A DNA stretch of 64,000 nucleotides from Actinomycetota bacterium (GTDB lineage Bacteria; Actinomycetota; Geothermincolia; Geothermincolales; RBG-13-55-18): the NCBI GenBank assembly GCA_034188985.1, contig JAXHVT010000027.1:11343-75342 (forward strand). The letters are read 5' to 3'. Below are positions 3,772-42,083 of this stretch, one piece after another. The number at the start of each line of letters is the position of its first letter. Within the stretch, counting starts at the first letter, position 1. The translations under genes were made by a program, and so were the position numbers. The notes under the pieces were generated by a model, which had not been told where the DNA came from, did not search any database, and saw only the letters and a program-made list of their open reading frames with translations.

Positions 3772-3927
3772 CTAGCGGCAGCGGGGAGCGCCGTGAAGCG
3801 TGAGATACTGGGAATAGCAATCGGGCCAGATGATCTGGCACGCGCCGAAGAAAAAACGGTTTATGCGCATGACCTTTATCTGGGGTTTGCTATATGGTTT
3901 CCTGCCTTTTTGTATCCTGCTAGACAT
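3772..3927 (-). CDS. Putative RiPP precursor, 51 aa: MSSRIQKGRKPYSKPQIKVMRINRFFFGACQIIWPDCYSQYLTLHGAPRCR
   Basis: Translated by hand. ATG overlaps the rSAM stop (ATGTCTAG), GAGGGTG lies upstream, YxxPxI RRE-binding motif, three Cys in the C-terminal half. Confidence 0.8.
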   Translation of the reverse strand: MSSRIQKGRKPYSKPQIKVMRINRFFFGACQIIWPDCYSQYLTLHGAPRCR

Positions 3928-4954
3928 CGTCCAACACCCTCATCAAGGCTTTCGTAAGCCTGCATTTCTCCCGGCTTACGGCTATTATCTCTCCACATTC
4001 CTGATAGGAAAGCGCCCGACAAATGCCACATTTATCCAGGTAAGAGCACTCATCGCACTCTTCCGGGAGATCCATCTCCCTTCTCCGGAGTTCCTCCAGT
4101 TGTGGGGATTTCCTCCATATTTCGACGAATCTTTCCTGCTGTATGTTTCCTACCACAAGAGGGAAGGCTACACAAGGATAGACGTCACCGTAAGGGTTAA
4201 TGGCGAACACGGTGCGCCCCGCTCCGCAGTAGCGCTTGTTCACGGCGTCGGGGTCCTCCGGCCCTATGACACATCGCTGCACGTATTCGACTACGTCCTC
4301 TATCTCCTCCCCCAGGACCTGGCTGAGATAGCCAGGTAGATAATCGACCTCGAAACGCATGAAACGCTCCAGGCCTTCATCATCCAGGCGCAGCCGGGTG
4401 GGGGCCGGGTCCCGGTCGTTGCGGGGAAAGATGAGGGAGCTGAACATAACACGAACCTCGAGTTCCCCGGCCAATCCGGCTATCTCCTCCACTTCTTCGA
4501 GATTGAAATCACCCACGATAGTCTTCAGCATAAACGGTATTTCCTCCTCTTTCAGGAGGTCCAGGGCCCTGCGGGTGGCCAGGAAGGAACCCTTTTCGCC
4601 GGTAAGGAAATCGTGGGTCTCCGGGCTTGCGCCATAGATGCTCACATCGATCATCAGGGTGGGCGTCTGTCCAAGGAGGCGGATCCTCTCCCTATCCAGC
4701 AGGGTGGCGTTGGTCTGCAGGGTTATCGCGAAGTGCCTATCGACCGCGGCGGACAGCAAATGGAAGAGGTCCTGCCGCAGCAGTGGTTCCCCACCGGTGA
4801 AGGCCAGGAAGAGGCACCCGGCATCCGCCAGCTCGTCCAGCACTCCGATCCATCGCTCCAGATTCATCTCTACACCGGCGGGCTTGTACTGGTAACAGTG
4901 GCGGCAGGAGAGATTGCAGCGGTGCGTCAGTTCCAGACTCCCCGAGAAGGGCAT
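3920..4954 (-). CDS. Radical SAM/SPASM domain peptide maturase
   Basis: CNLSCRHC, TGGEPLL, SPASM motifs CGAG..INPYGDVYPC and CDECSYLDKCGICRA..C. Confidence 0.92.
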   Translation of the reverse strand: MPFSGSLELTHRCNLSCRHCYQYKPAGVEMNLERWIGVLDELADAGCLFLAFTGGEPLLRQDLFHLLSAAVDRHFAITLQTNATLLDRERIRLLGQTPTLMIDVSIYGASPETHDFLTGEKGSFLATRRALDLLKEEEIPFMLKTIVGDFNLEEVEEIAGLAGELEVRVMFSSLIFPRNDRDPAPTRLRLDDEGLERFMRFEVDYLPGYLSQVLGEEIEDVVEYVQRCVIGPEDPDAVNKRYCGAGRTVFAINPYGDVYPCVAFPLVVGNIQQERFVEIWRKSPQLEELRRREMDLPEECDECSYLDKCGICRALSYQECGEIIAVSREKCRLTKALMRVLDDV

Positions 4955-5917: not shown

Positions 5918-6235
5918 CTAGCTTCGTCCCGCCTCGATGATCTTAGCCACGCCTCGATCCACCAGGCTCGCGGCGAACTCGAGCGTGTCCTCCAGGGCCG
6001 TTTCCATCCCCACCGCGAATTCCCCGACCAACGACTCGGCGATATCCCGAAGGGTCTCGTCACCACTCAGGCGGGACCATATGAAGGAGCCCACGGAGTC
6101 CAGCTGCATAACCTCGTCCTGCTTTACGTTTACCAGGATGGTCTCCTCCCCCACCTTGCGCCAAGCGATATCCGGGAGGCGTCTCAGCCTGTCTCCGGGA
6201 CCCGGCTTCTGAAGCCCCTTTTTGCCCTCACTCAT
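5918..6235 (-). CDS. PqqD family / RiPP recognition element (lasso B1-like)
   Basis: IAWRKVGEETILVN..LDSVGSFIWSRL..TLRDIAESL..EF..D.LEF..L..RG pattern, about 100 aa. Confidence 0.9.
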   Translation of the reverse strand: MSEGKKGLQKPGPGDRLRRLPDIAWRKVGEETILVNVKQDEVMQLDSVGSFIWSRLSGDETLRDIAESLVGEFAVGMETALEDTLEFAASLVDRGVAKIIEAGRS

Positions 6236-6716
6236 TCCCGAGTTCCTCGAAGCTGCTCGGGGGCTCGTTCACCGGGTTTCCATCCACCGCCACCCAGCAG
6301 TGGCCCTCCATCTGCCCGTTGTCACCGCGCACGCCGAAGACCAGGTGGGCGTCATGACCTTCCTCGCGCAGCACCCGGGCCAGGGTCAGCGAGCGGACCA
6401 GGCAGGAGGGGCGCAAGCCTATCCTCTCCAACAGGGAGAACCATTTGCACGCCCGGTTCATAACCAGGTCCTCCCTGGTGGGGTGCCTGTCTATCAAGCG
6501 GCCATCCAGCTTCCTGAGTTCCCTGCCCGGGAAGAGGATAGAGCGCAGAAGTGCGATCCCCGACCTGGCATAGAGGCGGGCGGCCTCCCGACACTCGATT
6601 CCCTTATCTTTCCATAAGGCGATTAACCATTTCTCCTGGCGAAACATAACCCTTACAGTATACCCCCTACTATCGACGAGGTCAGCCCTCGAGCCCCCTG
6701 TCGAAATACCGATCAT
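6228..6716 (-). CDS. Lasso peptide B2-like leader peptidase (transglutaminase-like)
   Basis: SCLVRSL (catalytic Cys), LVFGV, GHCWV (catalytic His). The true start may be the ATG near 6647, just after a TATACT. Confidence 0.88.
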   Translation of the reverse strand: MIGISTGGSRADLVDSRGYTVRVMFRQEKWLIALWKDKGIECREAARLYARSGIALLRSILFPGRELRKLDGRLIDRHPTREDLVMNRACKWFSLLERIGLRPSCLVRSLTLARVLREEGHDAHLVFGVRGDNGQMEGHCWVAVDGNPVNEPPSSFEELGNE

Positions 6717-6913: not shown

Positions 6914-7918
6914 ATGTTAGGTAATATAATGAGGCCTTTAAGAGCCAAGTACAAGGGAGCTATATATCACGTCTTTTCCAGAGGCAATAAGAACGACGAT
7001 ATATTCAAGTGTGCTGACAATAAAGGCTATTTCCTTGAATTGCTCAGTAAAGGAGTGTGTAAATATCATATAAGGCTCTACGCTTACTGTGTTATGGTCA
7101 ACCACTATCACCTTCTTATTCAGACTCTTGAAAACAATCTGTCCGAGTTTATGCATTATCTAGGCTCTTCATACGCCACTCATATAGTAAAGAATGGGTG
7201 GATAGGCCACGTTTTCGCTGGTAGGTACAAATCCATTTGCGTGGATAGAGAAGAATACCTTCTTACGCTAAGTAGATATATCCACCTGAATCCCGTTGAG
7301 GCCGGAATCGTGAAAAGGCCAGAGGAATATTTCTGGTCGAGTTATCCCGTCTACGTATGTGAGGATGAAGAGCCACCATGGATTTTTACCGAATGGCTGA
7401 TAGATCACTTTGGAACTGAATTATTCGAGGCAAGAGCCAGATACAAAGAATTCGTGGAGTCTAGAATCGAAGACATTCCTGCTTATCCCAAGGAAAGAAT
7501 TGTGGCCCAATCTATCATGGGAAAAGCAAATTTCCTGGATGAAGTCTTATTACGCATGAATGTAACCTCGCTATCGGAGAATGTAACTGGAAGAAGATAT
7601 TTCCTGAAGCGGAATAAGCTAAGCGACCTTCATGAAGCGATATGCGATTATTACGGGCTCGAGAACCTCAGGATTGTTTATGACGGTACACGTGAGGATC
7701 ACAATAAACGCAGGGAGCCCAGAAAGCTATTTATCTATCTCGCCAAGGAGCTGACGCCATCATTCTACCGGGATATCATCGAAATGCTAGGCGGGATAGA
7801 CGCTGACGCAATTACGAAGCAGTATATCAGGATGAAAAAGAAACTTGCGGAAAATCCAGCTTATAGGACTAGAATGGACGAGGTAATAAGCACGATCATT
7901 TCGCTTATCGATCAATGA
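6914..7918 (+). CDS. REP-associated tyrosine transposase (RAYT, Y1 HUH family) with C-terminal DnaA-like HTH extension
   Basis: RPLR..YHVFSRGN, HUH motif MVNHYHLL, GHVFAGRYKS, RYIHLNPVEAG, WSSY; C-terminal RKLFIYLAKELT..I.EMLGG. Likely start 6929; visibly AT-rich. Confidence 0.92.
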   Translation: MLGNIMRPLRAKYKGAIYHVFSRGNKNDDIFKCADNKGYFLELLSKGVCKYHIRLYAYCVMVNHYHLLIQTLENNLSEFMHYLGSSYATHIVKNGWIGHVFAGRYKSICVDREEYLLTLSRYIHLNPVEAGIVKRPEEYFWSSYPVYVCEDEEPPWIFTEWLIDHFGTELFEARARYKEFVESRIEDIPAYPKERIVAQSIMGKANFLDEVLLRMNVTSLSENVTGRRYFLKRNKLSDLHEAICDYYGLENLRIVYDGTREDHNKRREPRKLFIYLAKELTPSFYRDIIEMLGGIDADAITKQYIRMKKKLAENPAYRTRMDEVISTIISLIDQ

Positions 7919-7940: not shown

Positions 7941-9104
7941 TTGTATATGTTTAAATATAGGCAAGTCGATTATACAAGGGTGCTTTCTTTGATGAATGAT
8001 GTCAAGAAAAGGGCGAGCCATTTTATCCTTTCTGCAGTTGTATACGCATTCGGCTGCGAAGAAGAGGCTTCCAGGCTATCTAGCATATCGCAAATCCTCA
8101 CCCAATCTGACCTGAAGAGGGTGATCGGAAATGCCGAGTATCATAAGCTTGAACCGCTGTTACATTGTATCTGTGAGGATTGTATGAAGCTCGGCTATCC
8201 CTTACATATACCGGATTCTTTTCTCGACCACTTGTCAGCCGTTTACGACAGAGAGCTGGCCCGCTCAGCGATCATCCTCCACGGTGCCCGTAAAGCCTTC
8301 TCAGCTCTCGAGCATGCCGGGGTCAGGGTTGTACCACTCAAGGGAGTCTACTTATCATCCCGATTCTATGAAATGGAAGGCGCTCGCTCTTTCCGCGACC
8401 TGGATCTCCTTGTGGAAAGAGATGCACTGCCAGCATTGAACGAAGCTTTACTTGGTTCCGGATTCTTGCCCCATCCAGGAAGGCCATCCTTTGTGCCCGC
8501 CCCCGCATATACGGTATATTTTCTGCCCATGGAGAACAGCGATTTGAACATGGAGATCGACATCCACGTAGGGCTGCACTGGCCCCAGGAGTATTTCCGG
8601 CGCACCTCCCTGCGCCCCGAGGATCTGTGGTCGGAGGCTTGCCCGTATAACTACGAAGGAACAGTTACCTGGAGCATGAGCCTGGAACACCTGGTTATCA
8701 CAACATTGCTGGACGTGGCGATAAACCACCGCTACGCGCTTCTGATCAAATTCCGGGATATCGTAGAGATAATGCATAAAATGGATATCGACTGGGCAAG
8801 CGTAATCGAATGGTGCCAAACCTGGAAGGTCGTGAGCTTCGTGAGTCCAGGCTTGAGCCTCCTAAAGGGACTCCTAGCTTACTCAACCGATCTGACTGAT
8901 AATTTAAGTATCCCTGTCCCCACTTACCTGCTCTTGAAGCTCTTCTCGAGAGAACTAGCCGTGGAAGATCTGCCTGATCGCCGTGCCCGTGCTTTCAGTC
9001 CTTCCAACCTATTGTTCTTTCTGCTGGCGGATACATTCCGTGAAAGAGCTCGCGGCCTTATACATATGCCCGGTCATATCCTGAGAGGACGTCGGCGGTT
9101 CTGA
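7941..9104 (+). CDS. Nucleotidyltransferase family protein (NTP_transf_5-like)
   Basis: VPLKGVYL, R.FRDLDLLV, EIDIH motifs. Confidence 0.85.
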   Translation: MYMFKYRQVDYTRVLSLMNDVKKRASHFILSAVVYAFGCEEEASRLSSISQILTQSDLKRVIGNAEYHKLEPLLHCICEDCMKLGYPLHIPDSFLDHLSAVYDRELARSAIILHGARKAFSALEHAGVRVVPLKGVYLSSRFYEMEGARSFRDLDLLVERDALPALNEALLGSGFLPHPGRPSFVPAPAYTVYFLPMENSDLNMEIDIHVGLHWPQEYFRRTSLRPEDLWSEACPYNYEGTVTWSMSLEHLVITTLLDVAINHRYALLIKFRDIVEIMHKMDIDWASVIEWCQTWKVVSFVSPGLSLLKGLLAYSTDLTDNLSIPVPTYLLLKLFSRELAVEDLPDRRARAFSPSNLLFFLLADTFRERARGLIHMPGHILRGRRRF

Positions 9105-30696: not shown

Positions 30697-33600
30697 TCAG
30701 GTGGTGTCGAGGGGGAGGGTGAAGTGGAAGGTGGATCCGCCGCCGTCCCGGGGTTCGTACCATATCATGCCGCCGTGGGCCTCGACTATCCTCTTGCCGA
30801 TATACAGGCCCAGTCCTAGTCCGGGGCCGCCATGATGAAGCACGTCCTCCACCTGGAAGAAGCGCTCGAAGATGCGATCGCGGTCCTCATCCGGGATGCC
30901 GATGCCACGGTCCATAACCGAGAGGAGCAGTTCCCCGTCTTTTTTCCTCACCTGCAAGCTCACCTCGCTGCCCGCTGGAGAGTACTTCATCGCGTTGTCA
31001 AGTAGGATGATGAGCAGGCGCAGCAATCTCTCCGGATCGGCCCATACCCAGCCGACTCCCTCCGCGACATCGAGTCCGATATGGTTGTCTATCTCCTTGG
31101 CCGAGATCTCCTCCACGGCCCTGTTCAGCAAGGGCAGCAGTTCGATTTCCTCCCTGTTTACGGGGAAATGCTTTCTCTCGATGCGGGACACGTCCAGGAG
31201 TTCCTCCACGACGGTGACCAATCGGTCGGCCCCGACGTCGATGGCGTGCAGAGACTCCGCCCAGGTCTCGGGCGATATGGTCTCGCCCCTCTTCTCCAGG
31301 GTAGACGCGTAGCCCTTGAGCAGAGTGGCGGGATGGCGCAACTCGTGGGCGGCGATGTCCAGGAAGTCCCTGAGTTGCTCCGCCCTGTCCTCCAGCTCGT
31401 CTTCGTAGGCCTTCTTGTCGGAGATATCGATAATGGAGATCACGCTCATGTCCATCCCGGGTAGCATGTTCACGCTGATCAGGGTGTGTATTACCCTGCC
31501 GGTCTTATGCTTCGCCCTCACCTCGTAACGTACGGGTCCTTCCATCTCACCGTTCAGCAGCTTGAGGGAACTCTCCTTCACTTTCATGACATCCTCGGGA
31601 ATGAGAAACTCCATGTAACGCTTCTTTCCCAAAACCTCGTCACGGTCGTAGCCGAAGATCTCCTCCATCTCCTGGTTGGCGTCCAGCAATACCGCATCCC
31701 TTCCCACTAGGAACATGGCCGTGCCGGTGGATGCGAAGATGGTCCTATACTGCTCCTCGCTTCTCCTCAAGGCCTCGGCGGCCTCCTTGCCGCCGGTGAT
31801 ATCGATAATGGAGACCACGCTGCTCTCCATGCCCGGGAGCATGCTCACGTTGGTCAGCACCGACAGTATCCGCCCGTCCTTGCGCACCAAGCGGCATTCG
31901 TAGCTGACCGTGCTGTCCGTCTCCCCACGCAACAGCTCGATGGCATAACGCTTGACCATATCCACGTCGTTCTCATGGACGAAATTGTAGTATTTCTTGC
32001 CCTTAACCTCCTGGCGCGTGTAACCCACCAGCCTCTCGAACTCGCGGTTGGCCAAGGTAATCGTCCCGTCCCTGTCTATAAGACCCATGGAGGTGCCGGT
32101 GGACTCGAAGGTAGTGCGATACCTCTCCTCGCTCTTCAAGAGAGCTTCCTCGGCCCGCTTGCGATCCGTTATATCCCTCCAGCCGCTGATAATCCCGTGC
32201 ACCGCCGGATTATCGAGTAGGTTGCTTCCCACCGCTTCCACGAACCGCCAGGAGCCGTCCTTATGCTTAATACGGAATTCCATGTAAGGGCCGGCATAGG
32301 TCCCTTCCATATACTGGTTGAAAACCTCCTTGACCCTGGCGACATCATCGGGGTGTATCAGGGAGAAGAACAGGGTTATGTCGTTGCCAATATATACCTC
32401 CGGACTGTATCCGGTGATCCTCTCTATGGAGGGGCTCTGATACCTTATGGTACCGTCGGCGTTGATCACGGTAATGACGTCGGAGGAATTCTCTATGAGG
32501 GCCCGGAAGTATACCTCGCTCTCCCGCAGGGCCCTCTCCGCCCTCTTGCGCTCGGTGATATCAAGGATGGAGAGCACGGCACGGGGCGTGCCGGGCAGGA
32601 AATCCACGCTGGCCAGGGTATCCACTATCCCCCCGCCCTTCACGACCACCCTGACCTCGTAGGTCACCGGTCCCTTCCTGTCTCCACCCCAAAGCTCCCG
32701 GGCGTGTTGCTTGACCGTATCCAGATCCTCCGGGTAGACAATGTCCTCGTACCTGATATTCCCCTCTATCTCATCCTTGGTATAGCCAGTCATATACTCG
32801 AACTCGCGGTTTACACGCGTTATGGTGGAATCTCCCTCTATCACGCACATGGCGGTACCCGTGGACTCGAAGGTCACCCGTAGCTCCTCCTCGCTGGCCT
32901 TGAGGGCCTCTTCGCCCATCTTGCGGTCGGTTACATCTCGCACCACCGCCAGCACACGTTCATTTCCCGCGATAATGGCACGCTTGAGACTAACCTCTCC
33001 CCAGAAACGGCGGCCTCCCTTGTCCTTGAAACGCCATTCGACCAACTGAGGCTCTCCGGCCGAGGTCTTTCTTATCAACTCCAGTGCTTTCTCATTCGTG
33101 TATGGAGGCTCACCCGAGCTGAAATCGCCTACCTCGATATCGCGCAGTTCCTCGGCACAATATCCCAACATCTCGGTCGCCTTGATATTGACATCGACGA
33201 TATCACCCGTCTCGCCGTCGTGCACAAACATTGCGTCATTCGCAGCATTGAAGATCTCGCGGTATGTGGCCGCAGACTCCTTGAGGGCCTCCTCGGCCCG
33301 CTTGCGGTCCGTTATATCGCTGACCACGTCCATGATGGCCACTATCTCCCCTTCTTCGTTGCGCAGGGGCGTGCCTGTTATCTCGGCCTCCATAACCCGG
33401 CCGTCCTTGTGGGTGAGCCTCAACTCCTCGGTGTAAACGTCCTGGCCGCCGAACACTGCCGAAACTCCCTTCATAGCCTTTTCGTAATCGTCGTAGTGTA
33501 GTATGCCCAGCTCCAGCAGATTTCCTCCCACCAACTCGCCCTCCGTATAGCCGATCTTCTCGCAGACCATGGGATTCACACTGACTATGTTGAGTTCCCG

Positions 33601-36507
33601 ATCGTAGGAGAAGATGGCCAGCCCGGCGTGGTCGTGCAGAAGGCGGTACCTCTCCTCCGACTTGCGTAGGGCCGAGACCAGGCGGATGCGGGCCAGGGCC
33701 TGTCCAACCTGTCCAGCCATTATATCTAAGGCGTCCCTGGATACCTCGGGTATCTCCTCTAGGAAGTGGGAGCTCACCACCATGCTCCCGATTATCTCTT
33801 CATCGTGTTTCAAGGGCACTATGGCTATGGCCTTGATTCCCTCCCCGGTGCGATCCTCGATCTCGTCAAGCTCTAGGTCCCGGTAGTTGATATAAACGGC
33901 CTGGCCGTCCCGGATGAGCAAGACAGACCTGCTCTCGGAATCGAAGCTGCTTACCGCCTGCGCGAAGTCCTCGGATACGCCCCTGTGATAGACAAGCTCG
34001 AAGATACCGCTTTCCTCATCCACTAGGAAAACACCACCGTTATCGAAGCCTAGAGCCTCGAGAGTGGTATCCAGGCAAATCCTCGCGGCCTCCTCGGCGT
34101 TATAGACGGCGCTGATGCTCAAGGCAAGGTCTCGCTGGGCTCGCATCAGCCTCTCCGCCTGCTTGCGTTCAGTGACGTCGCTGGCAATGTTGGTGATGCC
34201 GATGACCTCGCCCTGCTCGTCGAACAGCGACGCAGCTATGACGTCGGCGATCATAACCGAACCGTCCCTGCGTATTAGCCTCAGCTCCTCCCTTGCGTAC
34301 CTGTCTCCGGCGAAGAGCCGCCTCATGTTCTCTAACACGGCTTCCATATCTCCGGAGTCTAGGATCCCCAGTTCGAGCACGCTCTTTCCCAGCAGTTCCT
34401 CCTCGCGGTAACCTATCTGCTCGCAGGCCCTTTGGTTGATGCTTATCATCCTGAGGTCACGGTCGTAGGTGAATATGGATTCACCGGCGTAGTCGTGCAG
34501 CAGGCGGTACCTCTCCTCCGACTCGCGCAGGGCCGCTACCAGGCGGATGCGGGCCAAGGCCTGGCCGATGGGACCGGCCATGACCTCGATCATCTCCCTG
34601 GAGGCCTCGGGCACCTCCGGCAGCGAAAGGGAGCCGAGCTGTATGGAGCCGATCACCTCTCCCTCGCTTACTATGGGCACCAGGGCTATGGCTCTGATGC
34701 CCTCTTTCTCCCGGACCCCCTCCTTGGGGACGGGATACCGTTCGTAGGTGGTAAAGAGGGTTTTCTTCTCTCTAAACAGGGCGGAACGGGGGGAATCGCC
34801 GGGGATATGCCGTACTAGATCGACGAATGACTGGGAAAGCCCACGATGGTGGATGAGATCGAAACCCCCGCTTCGCTCGTGCAATACGTAGATGCCGCCG
34901 CAGTCCATGCCGGAGGCCTCAAGTATGGTATCGAGGGCCACCTCCAGGGCTTGGCTCATATCGTCCGTAACGCTCAGCTCAATGGCCAGGTCCCGCTGGA
35001 CCCGAGCCAATCTCTCCGCCCGCTTGCGGTCGGTTATATCCGTGATCACGGCGAGGATGTATTTCTCTCCCGAGAACTCCAGCAGTACTCCGCTGACCTC
35101 GATGTCGAAGGGAGTACCGTCCTTTCTCATGTCCACGGATTCGGAGTGGAATGCCCCCGTCTCCTCCATATCCCGCAAGGCATACTCAAAGAGGTGGAGG
35201 TGCTCGGGGTGGACGATATCCGAGCCGGTGAGGCCCACGAATTCAGAGTGGGTATACCCATATGTCTCACAGGCCGATTGATTGGCCTCGACGACGAATC
35301 CCTCCCGGTTGAAGACGATGAAGGCATCGGTGGCGGCGTCGAAGATGCCCCGGTAGCGGGACTCGCTCTCCCGCAGTGCCAACTCCACCTGCTTACGTTC
35401 TGTTATATCGCTTATAGCGGCCAGCAGGCAGCTCTCGCCCTTGTAATCTAACATCGCCCCTCTTACCTCGACGTCGAAGGGGGTGCCGTCCTTTCTCATG
35501 TCCACGGATTCGGAGTGGAATATCTCCTCATCCCCCACGGTTTCCAGGAATTCCTGGAACAGGTGGTAATATTCCGGATGGACGATATCCCGACCGCTGA
35601 GGCCGATAAACTCCCCGTATGTGTACCCATAGGTGTCGCAGGCCTTGGGATTGGCCTCCAGTATAAACCCCTCCCTATCGAAGACGAGCAGCGCATCGGA
35701 GGCGTTGTCGAAGATACTGCGGTAGCGGGACTCGCTCTTCCGTAAGGCATCCTCCACCCGTTTGCGTTCGGTGATATCGCGAGAGTTCAAGACCATGCCT
35801 CGCACTGCCGGGTGATCCAGGAGGTTGTACGCGCTGGCCTCGTTTAAGCGCCAGTCGCCGTCCTTGCGCCGGATACGAAGCTCATGATACTTGGTTACCC
35901 CCGGCCTGCCCGCGGCGTAGGCGAGAGCGTCCCTGGAGGCCTGCATATCTTCGGGGTTGATATACTCGAAGATATTCCTGCCCGCTAACTCCCCCGGATC
36001 GTAGCCCAGAATCCGGCTCACGGAGGGGCCCACGTATCTTATGGTCCCGTCCTCCTCCAGGACGGTGATGAGGTCCAGGGCGTTCTCGACCAGCAGCCTG
36101 AAGTGCTCCTCGCTGCGGGCCAGTTCGCCCCTCGCCATCTCCCGCTCGCTTATGTCCACCCCGAAACCCACGGCCAGCTCCGGCCTTCCTTCGTCGTCTT
36201 CGATGATGACCGTGTTCCAGGATACGTCTATCTCTCCCCCGTCTCTCGTTCTCTGCGGGCATTCGAAGGAGGCGCCTTCTTTGCCAGCCCGGAATGCCTC
36301 GAAGCGCCGATGCATTACCTCCTTGAACCTGCTCGGCACGAAGAAATCCCATTTTTTCTTTCCTATTACATCCTCCTTGGGGTAACCCGTGAGCCTCTCC
36401 ATAACGGGGTTGAAAATGCTTACCAGGCCATCGACGCCTAAACCGATGATCATCAGCTCGGAGTTATTCAGAATAGCATCGAATACCTTTTTATCCCGAT
36501 CGTCCAT
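30697..36507 (-). CDS. Giant cytoplasmic sensor histidine kinase with about 11 PAS/PAC and 2 GAF domains
   Basis: Repeated DI(T/S)(E/D)RK junctions, two GAF segments, AAHELRHP H-box, NAMKYS, DRGIGI, GLGLGL. Confidence 0.93.
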   Translation of the reverse strand: MDDRDKKVFDAILNNSELMIIGLGVDGLVSIFNPVMERLTGYPKEDVIGKKKWDFFVPSRFKEVMHRRFEAFRAGKEGASFECPQRTRDGGEIDVSWNTVIIEDDEGRPELAVGFGVDISEREMARGELARSEEHFRLLVENALDLITVLEEDGTIRYVGPSVSRILGYDPGELAGRNIFEYINPEDMQASRDALAYAAGRPGVTKYHELRIRRKDGDWRLNEASAYNLLDHPAVRGMVLNSRDITERKRVEDALRKSESRYRSIFDNASDALLVFDREGFILEANPKACDTYGYTYGEFIGLSGRDIVHPEYYHLFQEFLETVGDEEIFHSESVDMRKDGTPFDVEVRGAMLDYKGESCLLAAISDITERKQVELALRESESRYRGIFDAATDAFIVFNREGFVVEANQSACETYGYTHSEFVGLTGSDIVHPEHLHLFEYALRDMEETGAFHSESVDMRKDGTPFDIEVSGVLLEFSGEKYILAVITDITDRKRAERLARVQRDLAIELSVTDDMSQALEVALDTILEASGMDCGGIYVLHERSGGFDLIHHRGLSQSFVDLVRHIPGDSPRSALFREKKTLFTTYERYPVPKEGVREKEGIRAIALVPIVSEGEVIGSIQLGSLSLPEVPEASREMIEVMAGPIGQALARIRLVAALRESEERYRLLHDYAGESIFTYDRDLRMISINQRACEQIGYREEELLGKSVLELGILDSGDMEAVLENMRRLFAGDRYAREELRLIRRDGSVMIADVIAASLFDEQGEVIGITNIASDVTERKQAERLMRAQRDLALSISAVYNAEEAARICLDTTLEALGFDNGGVFLVDEESGIFELVYHRGVSEDFAQAVSSFDSESRSVLLIRDGQAVYINYRDLELDEIEDRTGEGIKAIAIVPLKHDEEIIGSMVVSSHFLEEIPEVSRDALDIMAGQVGQALARIRLVSALRKSEERYRLLHDHAGLAIFSYDRELNIVSVNPMVCEKIGYTEGELVGGNLLELGILHYDDYEKAMKGVSAVFGGQDVYTEELRLTHKDGRVMEAEITGTPLRNEEGEIVAIMDVVSDITDRKRAEEALKESAATYREIFNAANDAMFVHDGETGDIVDVNIKATEMLGYCAEELRDIEVGDFSSGEPPYTNEKALELIRKTSAGEPQLVEWRFKDKGGRRFWGEVSLKRAIIAGNERVLAVVRDVTDRKMGEEALKASEEELRVTFESTGTAMCVIEGDSTITRVNREFEYMTGYTKDEIEGNIRYEDIVYPEDLDTVKQHARELWGGDRKGPVTYEVRVVVKGGGIVDTLASVDFLPGTPRAVLSILDITERKRAERALRESEVYFRALIENSSDVITVINADGTIRYQSPSIERITGYSPEVYIGNDITLFFSLIHPDDVARVKEVFNQYMEGTYAGPYMEFRIKHKDGSWRFVEAVGSNLLDNPAVHGIISGWRDITDRKRAEEALLKSEERYRTTFESTGTSMGLIDRDGTITLANREFERLVGYTRQEVKGKKYYNFVHENDVDMVKRYAIELLRGETDSTVSYECRLVRKDGRILSVLTNVSMLPGMESSVVSIIDITGGKEAAEALRRSEEQYRTIFASTGTAMFLVGRDAVLLDANQEMEEIFGYDRDEVLGKKRYMEFLIPEDVMKVKESSLKLLNGEMEGPVRYEVRAKHKTGRVIHTLISVNMLPGMDMSVISIIDISDKKAYEDELEDRAEQLRDFLDIAAHELRHPATLLKGYASTLEKRGETISPETWAESLHAIDVGADRLVTVVEELLDVSRIERKHFPVNREEIELLPLLNRAVEEISAKEIDNHIGLDVAEGVGWVWADPERLLRLLIILLDNAMKYSPAGSEVSLQVRKKDGELLLSVMDRGIGIPDEDRDRIFERFFQVEDVLHHGGPGLGLGLYIGKRIVEAHGGMIWYEPRDGGGSTFHFTLPLDTT

Positions 36508-37001: not shown

Positions 37002-38825
37002 ATGAAAACGAGGACGCTCAGGCTGCTCTTGATCCTGACTTTGCTGGCCGCGATGGTACTTATCCTGCCGCTGGCGGCGGGATGCGGGGAATCCAAAACC
37101 GAGGAAACCGAGAAGGTAAGCGCGCCGGGTGAATACTCCGGCTATTCCGAGCCCTTATACACCGGGTACGAGACGGAATCTCATTACGTGGATTCCTTCG
37201 ACGGCACCAAGATAGCCGTGGACGCCTTCGTGCCCACCGGCGGTCCGGACAACCAGTTCCCCGCCATACTCATTATGACTCCCTATCACCGCGCCAGCGT
37301 CGACGGCGACGAGGTCATGGACTATATGTCCGATCCCGACTCCCCCTACCGCACCCTCTCGTCATACGGCTACGCCATCGTGGTGGCCGACGTGAGGGGA
37401 ACGGGCGCCTCCTACGGCACGCGCTACGCCCTTTTCTTCCCGGAGGAGGTAAAGGACGGCGACTCGGTGGTGAACTGGATCGCGGATCAGAGCTGGTCGG
37501 ACGGCAACGTGGGTATGATGGGCCAGTCCTACCTGGCCACCATGCAGTTCATGAACGCCGCCAACCAGAATCCACACCTCAAGTGCATCATCCCGCGCTA
37601 CTCTTTCCTGGACATATACGACTTCGTGTACCCCGGAGGGATCTTCAACTTCAAGTTCGTGGATCGCTACGACCTGGCCATGGAGCTGCTGAACACCAAC
37701 GTATCCATGCCCAGCTTCGACGTCTACCCCAGCAAGCCGGTGGACGAGGACACCAACGGCAGCATGCTGGCCGAGGCCACCCTGGAGCACGAGGGCAATC
37801 TGGTGATGAAGGACGAGGCCCTCAAGACCCCCTACCGCGACAGCACTATGGAACTGGAGGGACAGACCCTGACTTACGACATCATCAGCCCCTCCGGCCA
37901 CCTGCAGGAGATCGAGGACTCTGGCGTGGCCATCTACAACATGGGCGGTTGGATGGACTGCTACGTCACCGCCACCCTGTCCTTCCAAGACACCCTGAGC
38001 AATACCAGCAAGTGCCTGGTGGGCGATTACGATCATACCCAGGGTTTCGACGGTTACACCATGGAGTGCCTGCGCTTCTTCGACCACTACCTCAAGGGCA
38101 TCGATAACGGCATCGATGAGGAGGAACCCTTCTATATATATACGTCGGGGGCCGACGAGTGGAATTTCTACGACCAGTGGCCCCTGGACGACCAGGTAAT
38201 GACCCCTTACTACTTCGCGGCCGGCGGGGAGCTGAGCACCACCAAGCCGGCGGAGGGAACGGACGAATACACCGTGGACTACACCACCTCCAGCGGGGAA
38301 AACACGCGCTGGCTTGCTATGACGGGAGAGCCCAGCGAGTACATCGACCGCACGGAGATGGATGAGAAGTGCCTCAACTACACCACCGTGGCCCTGGACT
38401 CCGACGTCGAGGTGACCGGCCATCCCGAGGTGCATCTGTTCGTTTCCTCCACCGCGACCGATGGCGATTTCTTCGTCTACCTGGAGGATATCGACGATAG
38501 TGGTTTCGCCGCCTACAAGACGGAGGGCGAGCTCAGGGCGTCTCTGCGCAAGGTGGGAACGCGCCCCTGGCTGCCGGATATAGTCTACCAGCCCAGCGGG
38601 CAGGCCGATGTACAGGAACTGGTGCCGGGAGAGATGGTGGAGCTGGTCTTCGATATGTACGCCATCTCGCACCTGTTCAAGGAGGGGCATAAAATCCGCG
38701 TGTCCATAGCTTGCGCGGACGATACCAACTTCATCACGCCCGTGTTGGACCCGCCGCCCACCATCACCATGTACACCGGCGGCGACAGCGCCTCCTATAT
38801 TAACCTGCCGGTGATCGAGAAATAA
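37002..38825 (+). CDS. CocE/NonD (peptidase S15) family hydrolase, lipoprotein
   Basis: Lipobox AAGC, TPY, DVRGTGASYG, GQSY, GGWMD, PepX_C-like tail. Confidence 0.9.
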   Translation: MKTRTLRLLLILTLLAAMVLILPLAAGCGESKTEETEKVSAPGEYSGYSEPLYTGYETESHYVDSFDGTKIAVDAFVPTGGPDNQFPAILIMTPYHRASVDGDEVMDYMSDPDSPYRTLSSYGYAIVVADVRGTGASYGTRYALFFPEEVKDGDSVVNWIADQSWSDGNVGMMGQSYLATMQFMNAANQNPHLKCIIPRYSFLDIYDFVYPGGIFNFKFVDRYDLAMELLNTNVSMPSFDVYPSKPVDEDTNGSMLAEATLEHEGNLVMKDEALKTPYRDSTMELEGQTLTYDIISPSGHLQEIEDSGVAIYNMGGWMDCYVTATLSFQDTLSNTSKCLVGDYDHTQGFDGYTMECLRFFDHYLKGIDNGIDEEEPFYIYTSGADEWNFYDQWPLDDQVMTPYYFAAGGELSTTKPAEGTDEYTVDYTTSSGENTRWLAMTGEPSEYIDRTEMDEKCLNYTTVALDSDVEVTGHPEVHLFVSSTATDGDFFVYLEDIDDSGFAAYKTEGELRASLRKVGTRPWLPDIVYQPSGQADVQELVPGEMVELVFDMYAISHLFKEGHKIRVSIACADDTNFITPVLDPPPTITMYTGGDSASYINLPVIEK

Positions 38826-39082
38826 ATTGGGGTCGTATCTTTGATTTTCGGCCACAGCCGAACAGGCGCCGGGATCGGACCCGGAGAAGCGCCGGGGACA
38901 TAAAGATCCGTCCGGATTACCGGATCGTAGGGGCTCAACACCGCCGGTCCCGCCCGGGAACCGTCCCGATAGCCGGATCGTGTGATTTCGGTCGCCGGGA
39001 TCGTACCGGCTTTATGCGATAATGGTTGGCGTATCGAAACGGCTGGCCGCGGACGGTGGTGAAACCGGAAGGAGTTACTGAC

Positions 39083-39307
39083 ATGGATTCCCAGTTCCCC
39101 AATTTCGCCAAGAAAGCCCGGGAGATCCTGAACGGCACCTCCGGTCTGGAAGACATCGACGATTTCCGGGCCCTGCTGTGCTTCGACTGCCCCTTCTATC
39201 ACTTCGGCGAGGAGGAGAACGAGGAGTGCGGCAGCTTCCTCATCCTCAAGGCCCTGCTGGAGAAGAACGCCTTTGACCTGGAGAAAGCCCTTCGTGAACT
39301 GGAATGA
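39083..39307 (+). CDS. Small CxxC...C protein coupled to the rSAM gene
   Basis: AAGGAG RBS; CFDCPFY..ECG; overlaps the rSAM start. Confidence 0.75.
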   Translation: MDSQFPNFAKKAREILNGTSGLEDIDDFRALLCFDCPFYHFGEEENEECGSFLILKALLEKNAFDLEKALRELE

Positions 39308-40466
39308 AGGCTACCCGCGCCTGGCGGAAGGCATATATCTCAAGGTCCTGGAGAAACCCTGCGCCTACAACAAGCTAACCGACGACCTCTACGAACTTTC
39401 CATGGAGGCCCTGGATTTCCTGAGACGCTGCGACGGGACCAGGAGGGCCGTGGAACTGGCCCCGGAGGACGATTTCCTGTCCTTCTGCCTGGAGGAGGGA
39501 GTGCTGGAAATACCGCCCGAACCCCGGGGATGGGAGGTCTCCGTGCAGCGCAACGAGGAGCCCTCGCTGCGCTACCTGATGATGGAGGTAACCGAGAGGT
39601 GCAACCTGCGCTGCCGCCACTGCTACCTGGGTGACTGGGGCTCAGGGGACATGGCGTGGGAAAAAGCCTTGCGAGCTGTGGAAGACTTCGACGATATGGG
39701 AGGCCTGCGCCTGCTGGTCACCGGGGGGGAGCCGCTTCTCTACCCCCACTTCCGGGAGCTGAACAGAGGGCTGGAGGACCGTTCCTACCGCGCCGTCCTT
39801 ATCACCAACGGCACCCTGATGGATGACCTGGACCTCGAATCCCTAAATTTCCAGGAGATACAGCTCTCCATCGACGGCATGGAGGAGGGCCACGATTACC
39901 TGCGGGGACGGGGGACCTTCCGGCGGGTCATGATGGCGGCGGAGGCCGTCATGGAAGCCGGCATGGATTTATCCGTGGCCACGGTGATGTACTCGAAAAA
40001 CCTCGACCAGATGGAGGAAATGGCGGAGATGCTGCGGGGCATGGGGGTGTCGTCCTGGGCGCTGGAGTATCCCGTCCCCGCTGGGCGCATGGAGGAGAAC
40101 AGCGAACTCATGCCCCGTCTCGAGGACGTCCTCCCCTTTTTTGAGCTGGAATGGGGCCTGGGTCCCCACGAGGGAGCCGAGGGCTACGCCTGCGGGGCCC
40201 ACCTGGCCAACCTGGAACCCGGGGGCAGCCTGGTGAAATGTGGCTATTACCGGGAGATAAGCGGAGGGGATATCGACAAAGGTCTGCGGCAGGCCTGGAC
40301 GGACCTCCCCAGGATGAGGCCGGAGGGGACCTGTGCCGCCTGCGATATGTTGGAGGAATGTGGCGGGGGGTGCCGCTACCGCGCCGAGCTCATGACCGGT
40401 AAAGGCGGCCCCGACCCGCTGATGTGCGCCCGTTTCGACGTACCCTTGAACCCACCCCCGGATTGA
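39294..40466 (+). CDS. Radical SAM/SPASM protein with N-terminal RRE-like domain
   Basis: N-terminal AYN..TDDLYELS..ALDFLRRCDG; CNLRCRHC; CGAH..C, CAAC..CGGGCR..C. Confidence 0.9.
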   Translation: MNWNEGYPRLAEGIYLKVLEKPCAYNKLTDDLYELSMEALDFLRRCDGTRRAVELAPEDDFLSFCLEEGVLEIPPEPRGWEVSVQRNEEPSLRYLMMEVTERCNLRCRHCYLGDWGSGDMAWEKALRAVEDFDDMGGLRLLVTGGEPLLYPHFRELNRGLEDRSYRAVLITNGTLMDDLDLESLNFQEIQLSIDGMEEGHDYLRGRGTFRRVMMAAEAVMEAGMDLSVATVMYSKNLDQMEEMAEMLRGMGVSSWALEYPVPAGRMEENSELMPRLEDVLPFFELEWGLGPHEGAEGYACGAHLANLEPGGSLVKCGYYREISGGDIDKGLRQAWTDLPRMRPEGTCAACDMLEECGGGCRYRAELMTGKGGPDPLMCARFDVPLNPPPD

Positions 40467-40601
40467 CCGACTGCCGCGAGCCGCCCGGGCTCACACCACC
40501 TTCAGGCATAGCTCCCGGCCGGGATCCGGGCCGCAACCCACCGACAACGTGATGCAATTTCAGCCATTGATATCCGTCGTTTAAGAAGGGTGGAGGCTGT
40601 G

Positions 40602-40637
40602 TATAATAATGATAAGTAACCCACTACCAAGGAGGTG
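40602..40637 (+). promoter_or_regulatory. -10 box and strong RBS for the 21-aa ORF
   Basis: TATAAT at 40602; AAGGAGGTG at 40629. Confidence 0.7.
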
Positions 40638-40642
40638 GTGAG

Positions 40643-40708
40643 ATGAGGATCACGAAGATCCCGAGGAGGAAGGGCGGAACCTGCAAGTGCAATAAGAGCT
40701 GCGGCTAA
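40643..40708 (+). CDS. 21-aa Cys-rich peptide MRITKIPRRKGGTCKCNKSCG, candidate rSAM substrate
   Basis: Translated by hand; perfect RBS, upstream TATAAT, downstream terminators. Confidence 0.8.
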   Translation: MRITKIPRRKGGTCKCNKSCG

Positions 40709-40725
40709 GCACGCCCGAGAGTCGC

Positions 40726-40778
40726 AGGGGGCCACCCGGCCCCCTCTTTTTATGACCGGGCCCGGCCCGGTTTTTTTT
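40726..40778 (+). terminator. Tandem intrinsic terminators
   Basis: agggggcc-accc-ggccccct-cttttt, then accggg-cccgg-cccggt-ttttttt. Confidence 0.8.
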
Positions 40779-40916
40779 CATGGGTCAAGGCTGCTTGGAG
40801 AGCTCGGCCCGATACCCTGCCCGATGCCTTAAGCCCCGGGGTTAAAGCCGGGTTTGCCCCGCCCGGTACCAGGCCAAAGGCACGTTTCCGGGACTGATCC
40901 CGGATTCTTACTGGAC

Positions 40917-40953
40917 AAAATGTCCGATGTCGGTGCCTGACCCCATCTTCTGA
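40917..40953 (-). repeat. REP-like element
   Basis: aaaatgtccgatgtcggtgcctgaccccatcttctga. Confidence 0.9.
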
Positions 40954-40966
40954 CATTTTTAAAAAC

Positions 40967-40994
40967 AACATGGCAGCCTTATGGCTGCCATGTT
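40967..40994 (-). terminator. Terminator of the I42 inhibitor gene
   Basis: aacatggcagcc-ttat-ggctgccatgtt, with T-run on the minus strand. Confidence 0.75.
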
Positions 40995-41015
40995 GACTCC
41001 GCTTGTTCCCGACTT

Positions 41016-42083
41016 CTATTTAACGGTCACATTGAAATCGGCTTCCTGCACCGGCTTCTCGTCCCCGGCTTCGTACAGCCCCAGCTTGATGGTCTCCTGT
41101 CCCGGGCCAAGGGCCATGAAGGTGAACTGGGTGACTCCCGCGCTGCCCGGATCCGTGCCGGACTGGAAGAACTGCGAGCCCATGAACTTGAACGTGCTGG
41201 TGTTTATCTCCTCGGCCAGCTGCCACTGGTAGTTGGTCCCCGAATTGTTGGTAACCTCGAGGATGAAGACCTCGCCAGTGCTCACGTTCACCGGCTTATT
41301 GGGATCGTTGTAGACCTTGGGAGGGGTGGGAGCCGGCGTGGGAGCCGGCGTCACGGTCACACTGACCGTGTCCTTCTTCTCCACCGGTGCGCCGGTCCCC
41401 GGTCCCTTGTACTCGAGGACGAAGGAGGTGTTGCCCGCCCCGACGCCCTCGAACTTCCAGACCTGCTTCTCCGCGGCTCCCGCGGCGCCGCTGCCCGAGA
41501 CGTCGCTGCTGACCAGCTTGAGTATCTTGGCATCGGGCTGCTTGGTCATGCTCCAGGCGTAACCGGCCGAGGTATTGGTGTCCACGGTGATGCTGAGCGT
41601 CTGGCCCGCCTGGATGCTGAAGGACTCGTTTATCTCGTTGTCGGCCTGGGAGACGTTAAAGGTCAGGGTGTAGCGCGTGGCCGGGGGGGTGTCCTCATCC
41701 CAGGCCTGGCTGTACTCCAGAACCATGGTGGTGGTACCCGCGCCGACGGCCTGGAACTGCCAGACCTCCTCCCCCGGTGCGCCCACCATGTTCTGATCCG
41801 TGGGCTCGACGTAATAGGAGTTCACCAGCCTCACGATATTCTCGTCCGGGGCCTGCGTGGTCTGCCAGGTGTAGCCGGTGGAGGAATTGGACTCCGCGGT
41901 GAAGTCTACGTGTTGTGCCGTCTCCATGTTGAAGGTTTCCTTTTTCTCCTCCGTCACAACCTTCTGGCCGTCGTCCTCCCCATCCTCGGCCTGGCACCCG
42001 CAGCCCCCCATCACCAGGGACAGGCATACGGCCGCTACGGCCAGGGCCACCAGCAGGATTAGATATAGCTTGTGTCTCTTCAT
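41016..42083 (-). CDS. Lipoprotein with three chagasin (I42) cysteine-protease inhibitor domains
   Basis: 3x N.(S/T).GY.W-like motif with GA.G..W.F..G.G..L.Y. Confidence 0.85.
   Translation of the reverse strand: MKRHKLYLILLVALAVAAVCLSLVMGGCGCQAEDGEDDGQKVVTEEKKETFNMETAQHVDFTAESNSSTGYTWQTTQAPDENIVRLVNSYYVEPTDQNMVGAPGEEVWQFQAVGAGTTTMVLEYSQAWDEDTPPATRYTLTFNVSQADNEINESFSIQAGQTLSITVDTNTSAGYAWSMTKQPDAKILKLVSSDVSGSGAAGAAEKQVWKFEGVGAGNTSFVLEYKGPGTGAPVEKKDTVSVTVTPAPTPAPTPPKVYNDPNKPVNVSTGEVFILEVTNNSGTNYQWQLAEEINTSTFKFMGSQFFQSGTDPGSAGVTQFTFMALGPGQETIKLGLYEAGDEKPVQEADFNVTVK

Follow-up and report, generated by a model that had tools for sequence, protein, structure and literature searches.

A near-invariant Cys-rich micropeptide gene that tracks a radical SAM enzyme and a 74-residue protein in deep-branching Actinomycetota: a candidate minimal peptide-modification system

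Can an open reading frame (ORF) of only 21 codons, lying downstream of a gene for a radical S-adenosylmethionine (rSAM) enzyme, be a genuine gene, and if so, is its product the peptide on which that enzyme acts? The question is raised by a 64,000-nucleotide stretch of the genome of an Actinomycetota bacterium of the class Geothermincolia, order Geothermincolales (GenBank assembly GCA_034188985.1, contig JAXHVT010000027.1, positions 11,343 to 75,342 of the forward strand), referred to here as the window, in which a gene for a Cys-bearing protein of 74 residues (small74), the rSAM gene and the micro-ORF follow one another on the same strand. The original prediction, made from the letters of this DNA, described the locus as a Cys-containing small protein, an rSAM enzyme, a TATAAT box, a Shine-Dalgarno (SD) sequence, the micro-ORF and two terminators. 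When we inspected positions 38700–41100 of the window and listed their ORFs, each of these parts was found exactly where it had been placed. The names carried by close homologues set the organism among uncultured Actinomycetota near Ca. Solincola and Ca. Geothermincola. Cumulatively, comparative sequence data, structural models and analogy with known systems lead us to give a probability of roughly 0.6 to the reading that this three-gene cassette of deep-branching Actinomycetota is a new peptide-modification system. It would be a minimal and probably intracellular trio of the ribosomally produced, post-translationally modified peptide (RiPP) or cofactor type, in which the rSAM enzyme modifies the Cys core of the peptide.

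A short ORF preceded by an SD sequence could occur by chance in any single sequence, and for this reason we placed the weight on conservation. A near-identical ORF of 20–21 codons was present no more than 700 nt downstream of the rSAM gene in 20 of 30 loci from related genomes, across which the rSAM enzymes are only 43–66% identical, and pattern scans of two public collections yielded 22 and 20 further loci, the ORF being intact in all of them. Pooling the related-genome loci with the pattern-scan loci gave 49 unique loci, and the ORF is intact in every one (49/49), starting with ATG in 45 cases and GTG in 4, and stopping with TAG, TGA or TAA in 29, 12 and 8, respectively. The rSAM enzymes beside it share only 51–66% identity across these loci. 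Among the 28 unique 66-nt versions, the numbers of variable sites at the first, second and third codon positions are 5, 8 and 14, and in the DNA alignment the amino acids stay constant over shifting codons while the -10 box and the SD are conserved as well. The exact peptide sequences are missing from a collection of 15 billion proteins, which indicates that gene callers never reported the peptide. An attenuator or leader-peptide role of the micro-ORF was considered and rejected, as the sequence past the terminator varies among loci and is encoded on the opposite strand in the window. The intactness of the ORF in all unique loci, together with its mainly third-position variation, bears out the earlier view of a genuine gene. 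Conservation marks the 21-codon ORF as a real gene, equipped with a -10 box of its own, a strong SD and terminators.

The original prediction had suggested a search for similar micro-ORFs beside homologues of the enzyme. To this end, all 51 genomes of the class were screened with a profile of nine peptide variants at a threshold of E ≤ 1e-3. The peptide was detected in 35 of the 36 rSAM-bearing genomes and in 0 of the 15 that lack the enzyme, where no score was better than E 0.28. The exception is G047, whose contig breaks off some 190 nt upstream of the small74 gene, the site of the peptide in its clade. Neither the rSAM enzyme nor the peptide is present in G025, a 100% complete genome from the same order, and the same is true of G016 (79% complete). 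From an even sampling of the phylum (401 genomes), a small74 profile picked out 30, seven of them outside the class, and a 20-variant peptide profile matched exactly the same 30, with one copy in each, and none of the other 371. In all seven out-of-class genomes an rSAM homologue (33–44% identity) directly follows the small74 gene, and a 20-codon ORF of the peptide family lies directly 3' of the rSAM gene on the same strand, with an SD in front of it in five of the seven by a simple motif test. Thus, micro-ORF and enzyme occur together (35/36 vs. 0/15 genomes in the class; 30 with both peptide and small74 and 371 with neither in the phylum), which is the co-occurrence of precursor gene and modifying enzyme by which a RiPP system is recognized. 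The small74 gene was found just upstream of the rSAM gene, often overlapping it, in 30/30 related loci and in 7/7 out-of-class loci. On these sequence data small74 is an obligatory third partner, which the original prediction had missed, and it could itself be a substrate.

The enzyme matches a single Pfam family, PF04055 (E 3.6e-21; 76.5 bits vs. a cutoff of 29.5), and carries the Cys triad of the rSAM superfamily, C103-x3-C107-x2-C110, which is invariant in 31 aligned sequences. A SPASM motif has the form C-x9-15-G-x4-C ... C-x2-C-x5-C-x3-C ... C and holds two auxiliary clusters. The seven Cys residues of the enzyme follow it, with C300-x15-C316 (G311 between them), C347-x2-C350-x5-C356-x3-C360 and C378, and six of the seven are invariant in the same alignment. 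In the AlphaFold2 (AF2) model, which has a predicted local distance difference test score (pLDDT) of 93, the N-terminus forms a RiPP recognition element (RRE)-like domain at about residues 10–70 with strands at 14–18, 22–26 and 31–34 and helices at 37–45, 52–55 and 59–67; this predicted order of three strands and then three helices is the topology of an RRE, a PqqD-like winged helix. Foldseek ranked SuiB first (E 1.4e-14, 430 columns), followed by SkfB, PqqE and CteB, all in whole-chain alignments, and the alignments with SuiB and CteB cover 424–440 columns, their RRE included. A sequence search of the PDB returned SkfB as the best match, then PqqE, BlsE and CteB. The 79 weak NCBIfam matches are nearly all to rSAM/SPASM maturase families and, among the 25 matches listed, stay far below their cutoffs, the best row being AhbD at 103 bits vs. 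500. The invariant Cys motifs, the modelled topology and the RiPP maturases found as nearest structures are all consistent with the RRE–rSAM–SPASM build foreseen in the original prediction. According to the model, the enzyme is built like those peptide maturases in which the RRE holds the leader while the core is modified.

Across the peptide family, residues I3, K5, C14, K15, C16, S19 and C20 are invariant (motif C-K-C-x-x-S-C) and T13 is nearly so; the consensus computed from the 20-variant profile is MxIxKVxxKxSSTCKCSKSC. The family members are 19–21 residues long and have three Cys, or four in one variant, and the peptide is basic (pI 10.5, charge +6.5), nearly invariant and single-copy. 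Both halves are conserved, which fits a recognition part plus a core. The proposal of a leader ending in GG did not survive the comparison. Positions 11–12 read GG, GS, SS, AS or SR among relatives, so GG is no conserved processing motif, and it was discarded as a cleavage site. The terminal Gly is absent from peptides outside the order, and diverged forms of 19–20 residues in three other families have no final Gly and show AS, SS or GG before the core. Neither the peptide nor small74 matches any Pfam (E ≤ 0.01) or NCBIfam model; when seven peptide variants were compared with NCBIfam, there was no match to the precursor model of SCIFF (six Cys in about forty-five residues) and none above cutoff, and the sole row, from one variant, was a thiazolylpeptide-type bacteriocin model at 15.2 bits vs. 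a cutoff of 25.

From these features we propose how the cassette might work. In the peptide, the N-terminal half with its M-[KR]-I-x-K-hydrophobic pattern would be a very short leader that docks on the RRE as an added β-strand, as in SuiB and CteB, and the C-terminal core, T-C-K-C-x-x-S-C, would enter the active site. There, one of the core residues would lose a hydrogen to the 5'-deoxyadenosyl radical, and at least one intramolecular thioether ring of the sacti- or ranthipeptide type would be closed by a Cys thiol, which an auxiliary SPASM cluster might hold in place. The product would stay in the cell unprocessed and at full length, like SCIFF or a peptide-derived cofactor, with small74 acting as binder, carrier or metal/electron partner of the peptide, or as a second substrate. 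We take the peptide as the client because it is the sole conserved peptide-sized candidate beside the RRE enzyme, and it is only the class of enzyme and the invariant Cys that suggest sacti- or ranthipeptide chemistry. Thioether rings somewhere within the core are proposed by analogy with SkfB, CteB and other SPASM enzymes that form thioethers (PMC8326336). According to PMC8326336, Cys is the donor in the published thioether RiPPs made by this class of enzyme, and SCIFF, too, is conserved widely. The near-invariant, single-copy peptide and the lack of a conserved protease or exporter suggest that the product probably remains intracellular and unprocessed.

How, then, does the cassette relate to described systems? 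Judged from its genes, it works like the SCIFF/ranthipeptide or the pyrroloquinoline quinone (PQQ)/mycofactocin-type systems and is a member of none, since its equivalog scores are far below the cutoffs, SCIFF is more than twice as long as its peptide and has twice the Cys, and it has an extra obligatory protein. SCIFF/ranthipeptide systems of Clostridia, with a CteB- or Tte1186-type maturase, also place a short Cys-rich peptide, conserved throughout the lineage, beside an RRE–rSAM–SPASM enzyme, and CteB is among the best structural matches of the cassette enzyme. However, SCIFF has about 45 residues and six Cys, as opposed to 19–21 residues and three Cys, and the cassette adds the 74-residue Cys protein and resides in Actinomycetota. 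The best ranthipeptide row for the enzyme, PapB, scored 66 vs. 340 bits, and the maturase cutoff was not reached; the SCIFF models are TIGR03973 for the precursor and TIGR03974 for the maturase. PQQ (PqqA/PqqD/PqqE) and mycofactocin (MftA/MftB/MftC) share with the cassette a very short, conserved, single-copy precursor, an rSAM-SPASM enzyme using an RRE and an intracellular product, the latter as predicted for the cassette, and PqqE is a top match of the cassette enzyme in both sequence and structure. Nonetheless, the scores were 65.1 bits for the PqqE model (TIGR02109, cutoff 381) and 74.6 bits for the MftC model (TIGR03962, cutoff 265). In these pathways the target residues are Glu and Tyr or Val-Tyr, and further genes, PqqB/C or MftD/E/F, take part. 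The cassette peptide is without Glu, Tyr or Val-Tyr target residues, none of PqqB/C and MftD/E/F was found near the cassette, and the RRE is fused to the cassette enzyme whereas it is a separate protein in PQQ and mycofactocin.

SuiB, the streptide enzyme, and SkfB, that of the sporulation killing factor, share the RRE–rSAM–SPASM build and head the Foldseek ranking (E about 1e-14), but their sequence identity to the cassette enzyme is 15–21%, and their substrates are longer, unrelated and accompanied by export and processing genes. Two further pairs set a SPASM rSAM enzyme beside a small Cys-bearing protein substrate: CrpC/CrpA, for which PMC13692751 indicates that whole proteins can be modified, and QhpD/QhpC, cited in PMC8326336. 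In contrast to these substrates, small74 is a predicted helical bundle with three Cys and no repeats, and a separate 21-residue peptide is obligatory in the cassette; the two pairs bear on it by analogy only.

Small74 is acidic (pI 4.4, charge -9.4), and its invariant residues include C33, D35, C36, F38, G42, E43, E45 and C49, with the motif C33-x2-C36; position 51, a possible fourth ligand, varies among relatives between Cys, Ser and Ala. The AF2 model (pLDDT 89.9) is a compact bundle of five helices, for which no structural relative was found with Foldseek against the PDB (best E 5.3) or VIA-align (best Z 3.5), a result that does not show the fold to be new. Small74 matched no Pfam family at E ≤ 0.01 and no NCBIfam model at E ≤ 1, and 16–18 remote relatives were likewise without a family. 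A profile search of 1.84 billion representatives returned 94 relatives at E ≤ 1e-3, mostly of 50–130 residues. Some of them (P0194, P0199, P0212, P0223 and P0240, about 110–145 residues) contain the C-x2-C...C unit twice and have no Pfam or NCBIfam family, whereas the long CAP-domain proteins P0171 and P0204 look like spurious repeat matches and were set aside. One cluster of relatives is named from Thermaerobacter metagenome-assembled genomes, and by this sequence match the family may reach Bacillota; it may also reach archaea, via leads from unnamed clusters of the ESM atlas only. A single record of uncertain quality, P0180 (120 residues), resembles the RRE half of the rSAM enzyme over its first ~56 residues (43% identity, E 5e-6) and small74 over its last ~49 (43% identity, E 9e-12). 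This is a fusion of natural origin or else an artefact of a deletion, and the joining of RRE-like and small74-like sequence hints at two parts working side by side.

The order of the genes differs between clades, and all three are nevertheless retained. Families f1 and f3 and the seven out-of-class genomes have the peptide gene downstream, on the strand of the other two genes; in six genomes of f4/f5 (G033, G035, G036, G041, G042 and G045) it is upstream of small74 and divergent, and the rSAM gene leads into mraZ and the division cluster. The peptide gene has been inverted in G017, and an inserted gene sets it 3.3 kb apart in G006. As read from coordinates, the peptide gene is on the same contig and no more than 400 nt from the small74–rSAM pair in 29 of 36 genomes. 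Among the pattern-scan loci, 33 of 42 have the rSAM gene directly upstream of the peptide gene and codirectional with it, one has it convergent and eight do not show it; in five of these eight the locus or contig ends near the peptide gene. The enzyme tree follows taxonomy (support of 96/100 for the Geothermincolales clade and 90/91 for the out-of-class group), which fits vertical descent with few local rearrangements. Genes flanking the loci downstream are not conserved, and upstream synteny, comprising a PAS histidine kinase, a 501-residue ORF and a TetR gene, is partial and restricted to the family; the three genes therefore stand out as the conserved unit.

Several points weigh against the peptide being the client of this enzyme. 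A leader of 12 residues is very short for RRE binding, the Pfam SPASM model has no match in the enzyme at E ≤ 0.01, and the actual substrate, or a co-substrate, might be small74, which co-occurs universally. The peptide genes of G020 and G024 are on a different contig, away from any rSAM gene, and at the metagenome locus L111 there is no rSAM gene within 1.16 kb of the peptide gene. As for the counts, related genomes are not independent observations, and the peptide profile was built in part from its positive genomes, the 30 positives being not independent of it; no such dependence affects the 371 negatives or the ORF search made earlier downstream of the rSAM gene.

If small74 were the substrate, the enzyme would form Cys–Asp/Glu thioether crosslinks in it, as in CrpA/CrpC and QhpC/QhpD, and the peptide would be an unmodified binder, regulator or metal carrier. 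The constant position of the small74 gene directly upstream of the rSAM gene (30/30 and 7/7), often with overlap, favours this view, as do the invariant C33, D35, C36, E43, E45 and C49, which set Cys beside acidic residues, the union of an RRE-like N-terminus with a small74-like C-terminus in P0180, and the modification of whole Cys-rich proteins by RRE-bearing SPASM enzymes described in PMC13692751. We nonetheless consider it unlikely. The compact helical bundle predicted for small74 (pLDDT 89.9) offers no extended core, RREs normally bind short leaders, a role that suits the conserved N-terminal half of the peptide, and the strict tracking of peptide and enzyme would be left unexplained. Alternatively, the peptide might remain unmodified and serve together with small74 in metal binding or regulation, perhaps at a shared metal or Fe-S site to which each contributes three Cys, with the rSAM enzyme acting elsewhere in the pathway. 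Three invariant Cys in each small partner, the lack of a conserved fourth ligand in small74 and the opposite charges of the two (+6.5 vs. -9.4) are in keeping with such a partnership, and two homologues are labelled as metal-binding or Fe-S proteins by their source. These labels, however, are annotation only, there is no fourth conserved gene, and the presence of a SPASM enzyme with an RRE, and of no other candidate peptide near it, suggests that the peptide is its client, which makes an unmodified micropeptide improbable in our view. Modification and metal binding may also be combined, in that small74 would hold the crosslinked peptide and the three Cys of each would jointly bind a metal or Fe-S cluster, giving a new intracellular cofactor or prosthetic peptide. 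We regard this version as rather doubtful; if true, it would represent a housekeeping redox or metal device of anaerobic deep-branching lineages, akin to PQQ and mycofactocin.

It is also conceivable that the peptide gene is merely a syntenic neighbour of the small74–rSAM pair, kept beside it by shared descent with no functional tie. The promoter and terminator of its own, the vertical inheritance seen in the enzyme tree and the separation of peptide and enzyme genes in G020, G024 and L111 would all be compatible with this. Yet shared descent is at odds with the match across 401 genomes (30 with both, 371 with neither), with the loss of both genes together in G025, with the retention of the peptide after inversion, relocation and insertion and with the lack of conservation of the downstream flanking genes. 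This explanation, already disfavoured, is in our judgement very improbable.

No description of the cassette was found in the literature, in which the core motif strings occurred only in unrelated contexts (subscription journals and supplements lay outside the search). If the preferred reading, modification of the peptide by the enzyme, is true, a precursor of 19–21 residues would to our knowledge be among the shortest RiPP precursors so far, and one that has been invisible to annotation. The near-invariance and single copy of the peptide, its strict coupling to the enzyme and the absence of export genes argue for a cellular rather than an antibiotic role. The same question is posed by SCIFF, whose wide spread, according to PMC8326336, argues against a classical exported antimicrobial role. 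An obligatory 74-residue Cys protein without a fold relative falls outside known rSAM-RiPP schemes. As the cassette consists of only three genes, it is directly testable by heterologous expression.

The features of the locus are compiled in Table 1. The rSAM start was assigned to the GTG, which makes the gene overlap the small74 stop by 14 nt; a TTG at 39273 is likewise open. The spacer after the rSAM gene measures 176 nt. A weak -35-like TTTAAG precedes the TATAAT box by 16 nt, and most of the 49 upstream sequences from related loci have a -10-like box 30–35 nt ahead of the start codon. The hairpin in the 5' untranslated region (UTR) was predicted in 48 of the 49 unique 5'-UTRs at about -9 to -13 kcal/mol, the remaining one being cut short. 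It has 6–9 bp, the SD occupies its loop and 3' arm, and the arms vary by clade yet stay complementary (CACUACC/GGUGGUG, CAACAC/GUGUUG, CCC.UCC/GGA.GGG); such a hairpin might stabilize the short mRNA or gate translation. In aligned relatives, a G+C-rich hairpin of varying sequence also follows the peptide stop codon.

Table 1. Elements of the cassette locus with their positions in the window
Feature	Position	Strand	Basis or remark
small74, acidic helical Cys protein, 74 aa	39083-39307	+	ORF listing; directly 5' of the rSAM gene
Radical SAM enzyme, 390 aa	39294-40466	+	PF04055; RRE-like N-terminus; seven-Cys SPASM
Own promoter of the peptide gene, -10 box TATAAT	40602-40607	+	overlaps a listed promoter-like site
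5'-UTR hairpin CACUACC-AAGGA-GGUGGUG, holding the SD	40622-40640	+	predicted folding
Shine-Dalgarno AAGGAGGTG (as RNA AAGGAGGUG)	40629-40637	+	within the 5'-UTR hairpin
21-codon peptide gene MRITKIPRRKGGTCKCNKSCG	40643-40708	+	conservation in 49 unique loci
Two intrinsic-terminator-like hairpins, each followed by a T-run	40726-40745 and 40754-40772	+	

Farther upstream, a block TTGACGGTTGnGGTTTAT located about 17–29 nt 5' of the -10 box is conserved in many loci of the window's own family, and its counterpart in the window, at 40567–40585, is degenerate (TTGATATCCGTCGTTTAAG). The TTGAC of this block is too distant from the -10 box for a -35 element, so the block might function as an operator or as a second element of the promoter. 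An Rfam scan of 38800–41050 gave no model at its gathering score; a weak SorX row (21 bits vs. 46.6) spans the terminators.

The original statement that no protease or transporter is adjacent stands insofar as none is conserved with the cassette, but in the window itself a Peptidase_S15 gene (X-Pro dipeptidyl-peptidase-like; 37002–38825, +) lies 258 nt upstream of the cassette. On the downstream side, a chagasin-type (I42) peptidase inhibitor with three repeats is encoded at 41016–42083 (-). The S15 peptidase adjoins the cassette in 3 of 21 wider loci, the window counted, and the inhibitor in the window alone; by this comparison both are outside the conserved unit. A histidine kinase of 1936 residues (30697–36507, -), whose sequence looks rich in PAS/GAF-like repeats, is encoded divergently upstream; in many loci of the family kinase-like matches precede the cassette, which may be plain synteny.

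At loci L073–L076 (G042, G033, G036 and G035), from two other families of the class, the cassette is directly upstream of mraZ-rsmH-ftsL-ftsI. Intergenic repeat boxes of the GTGG/CCAC type before mraZ are conserved between genomes and presumably represent the MraZ operator. The conserved blocks 3' of the rSAM gene in f4/f5 were considered as an alternative peptide and rejected, as they are the mraZ promoter region. In a 77% complete genome (G029:C15:73343-74309) the rSAM gene is in two pieces with a frame break while the downstream peptide is intact, which reflects either a decaying gene or an assembly error.

The window contains another rSAM system, unrelated to the cassette, with a 344-residue rSAM protein that does match the Pfam SPASM model. 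This system occupies 3923–4954 (-), 6231–6716 (-) and 7941–9104 (+), with transglutaminase-like and NTP_transf_5 proteins near the rSAM protein, and an IS200-like transposase is encoded close by at 6914–7918.

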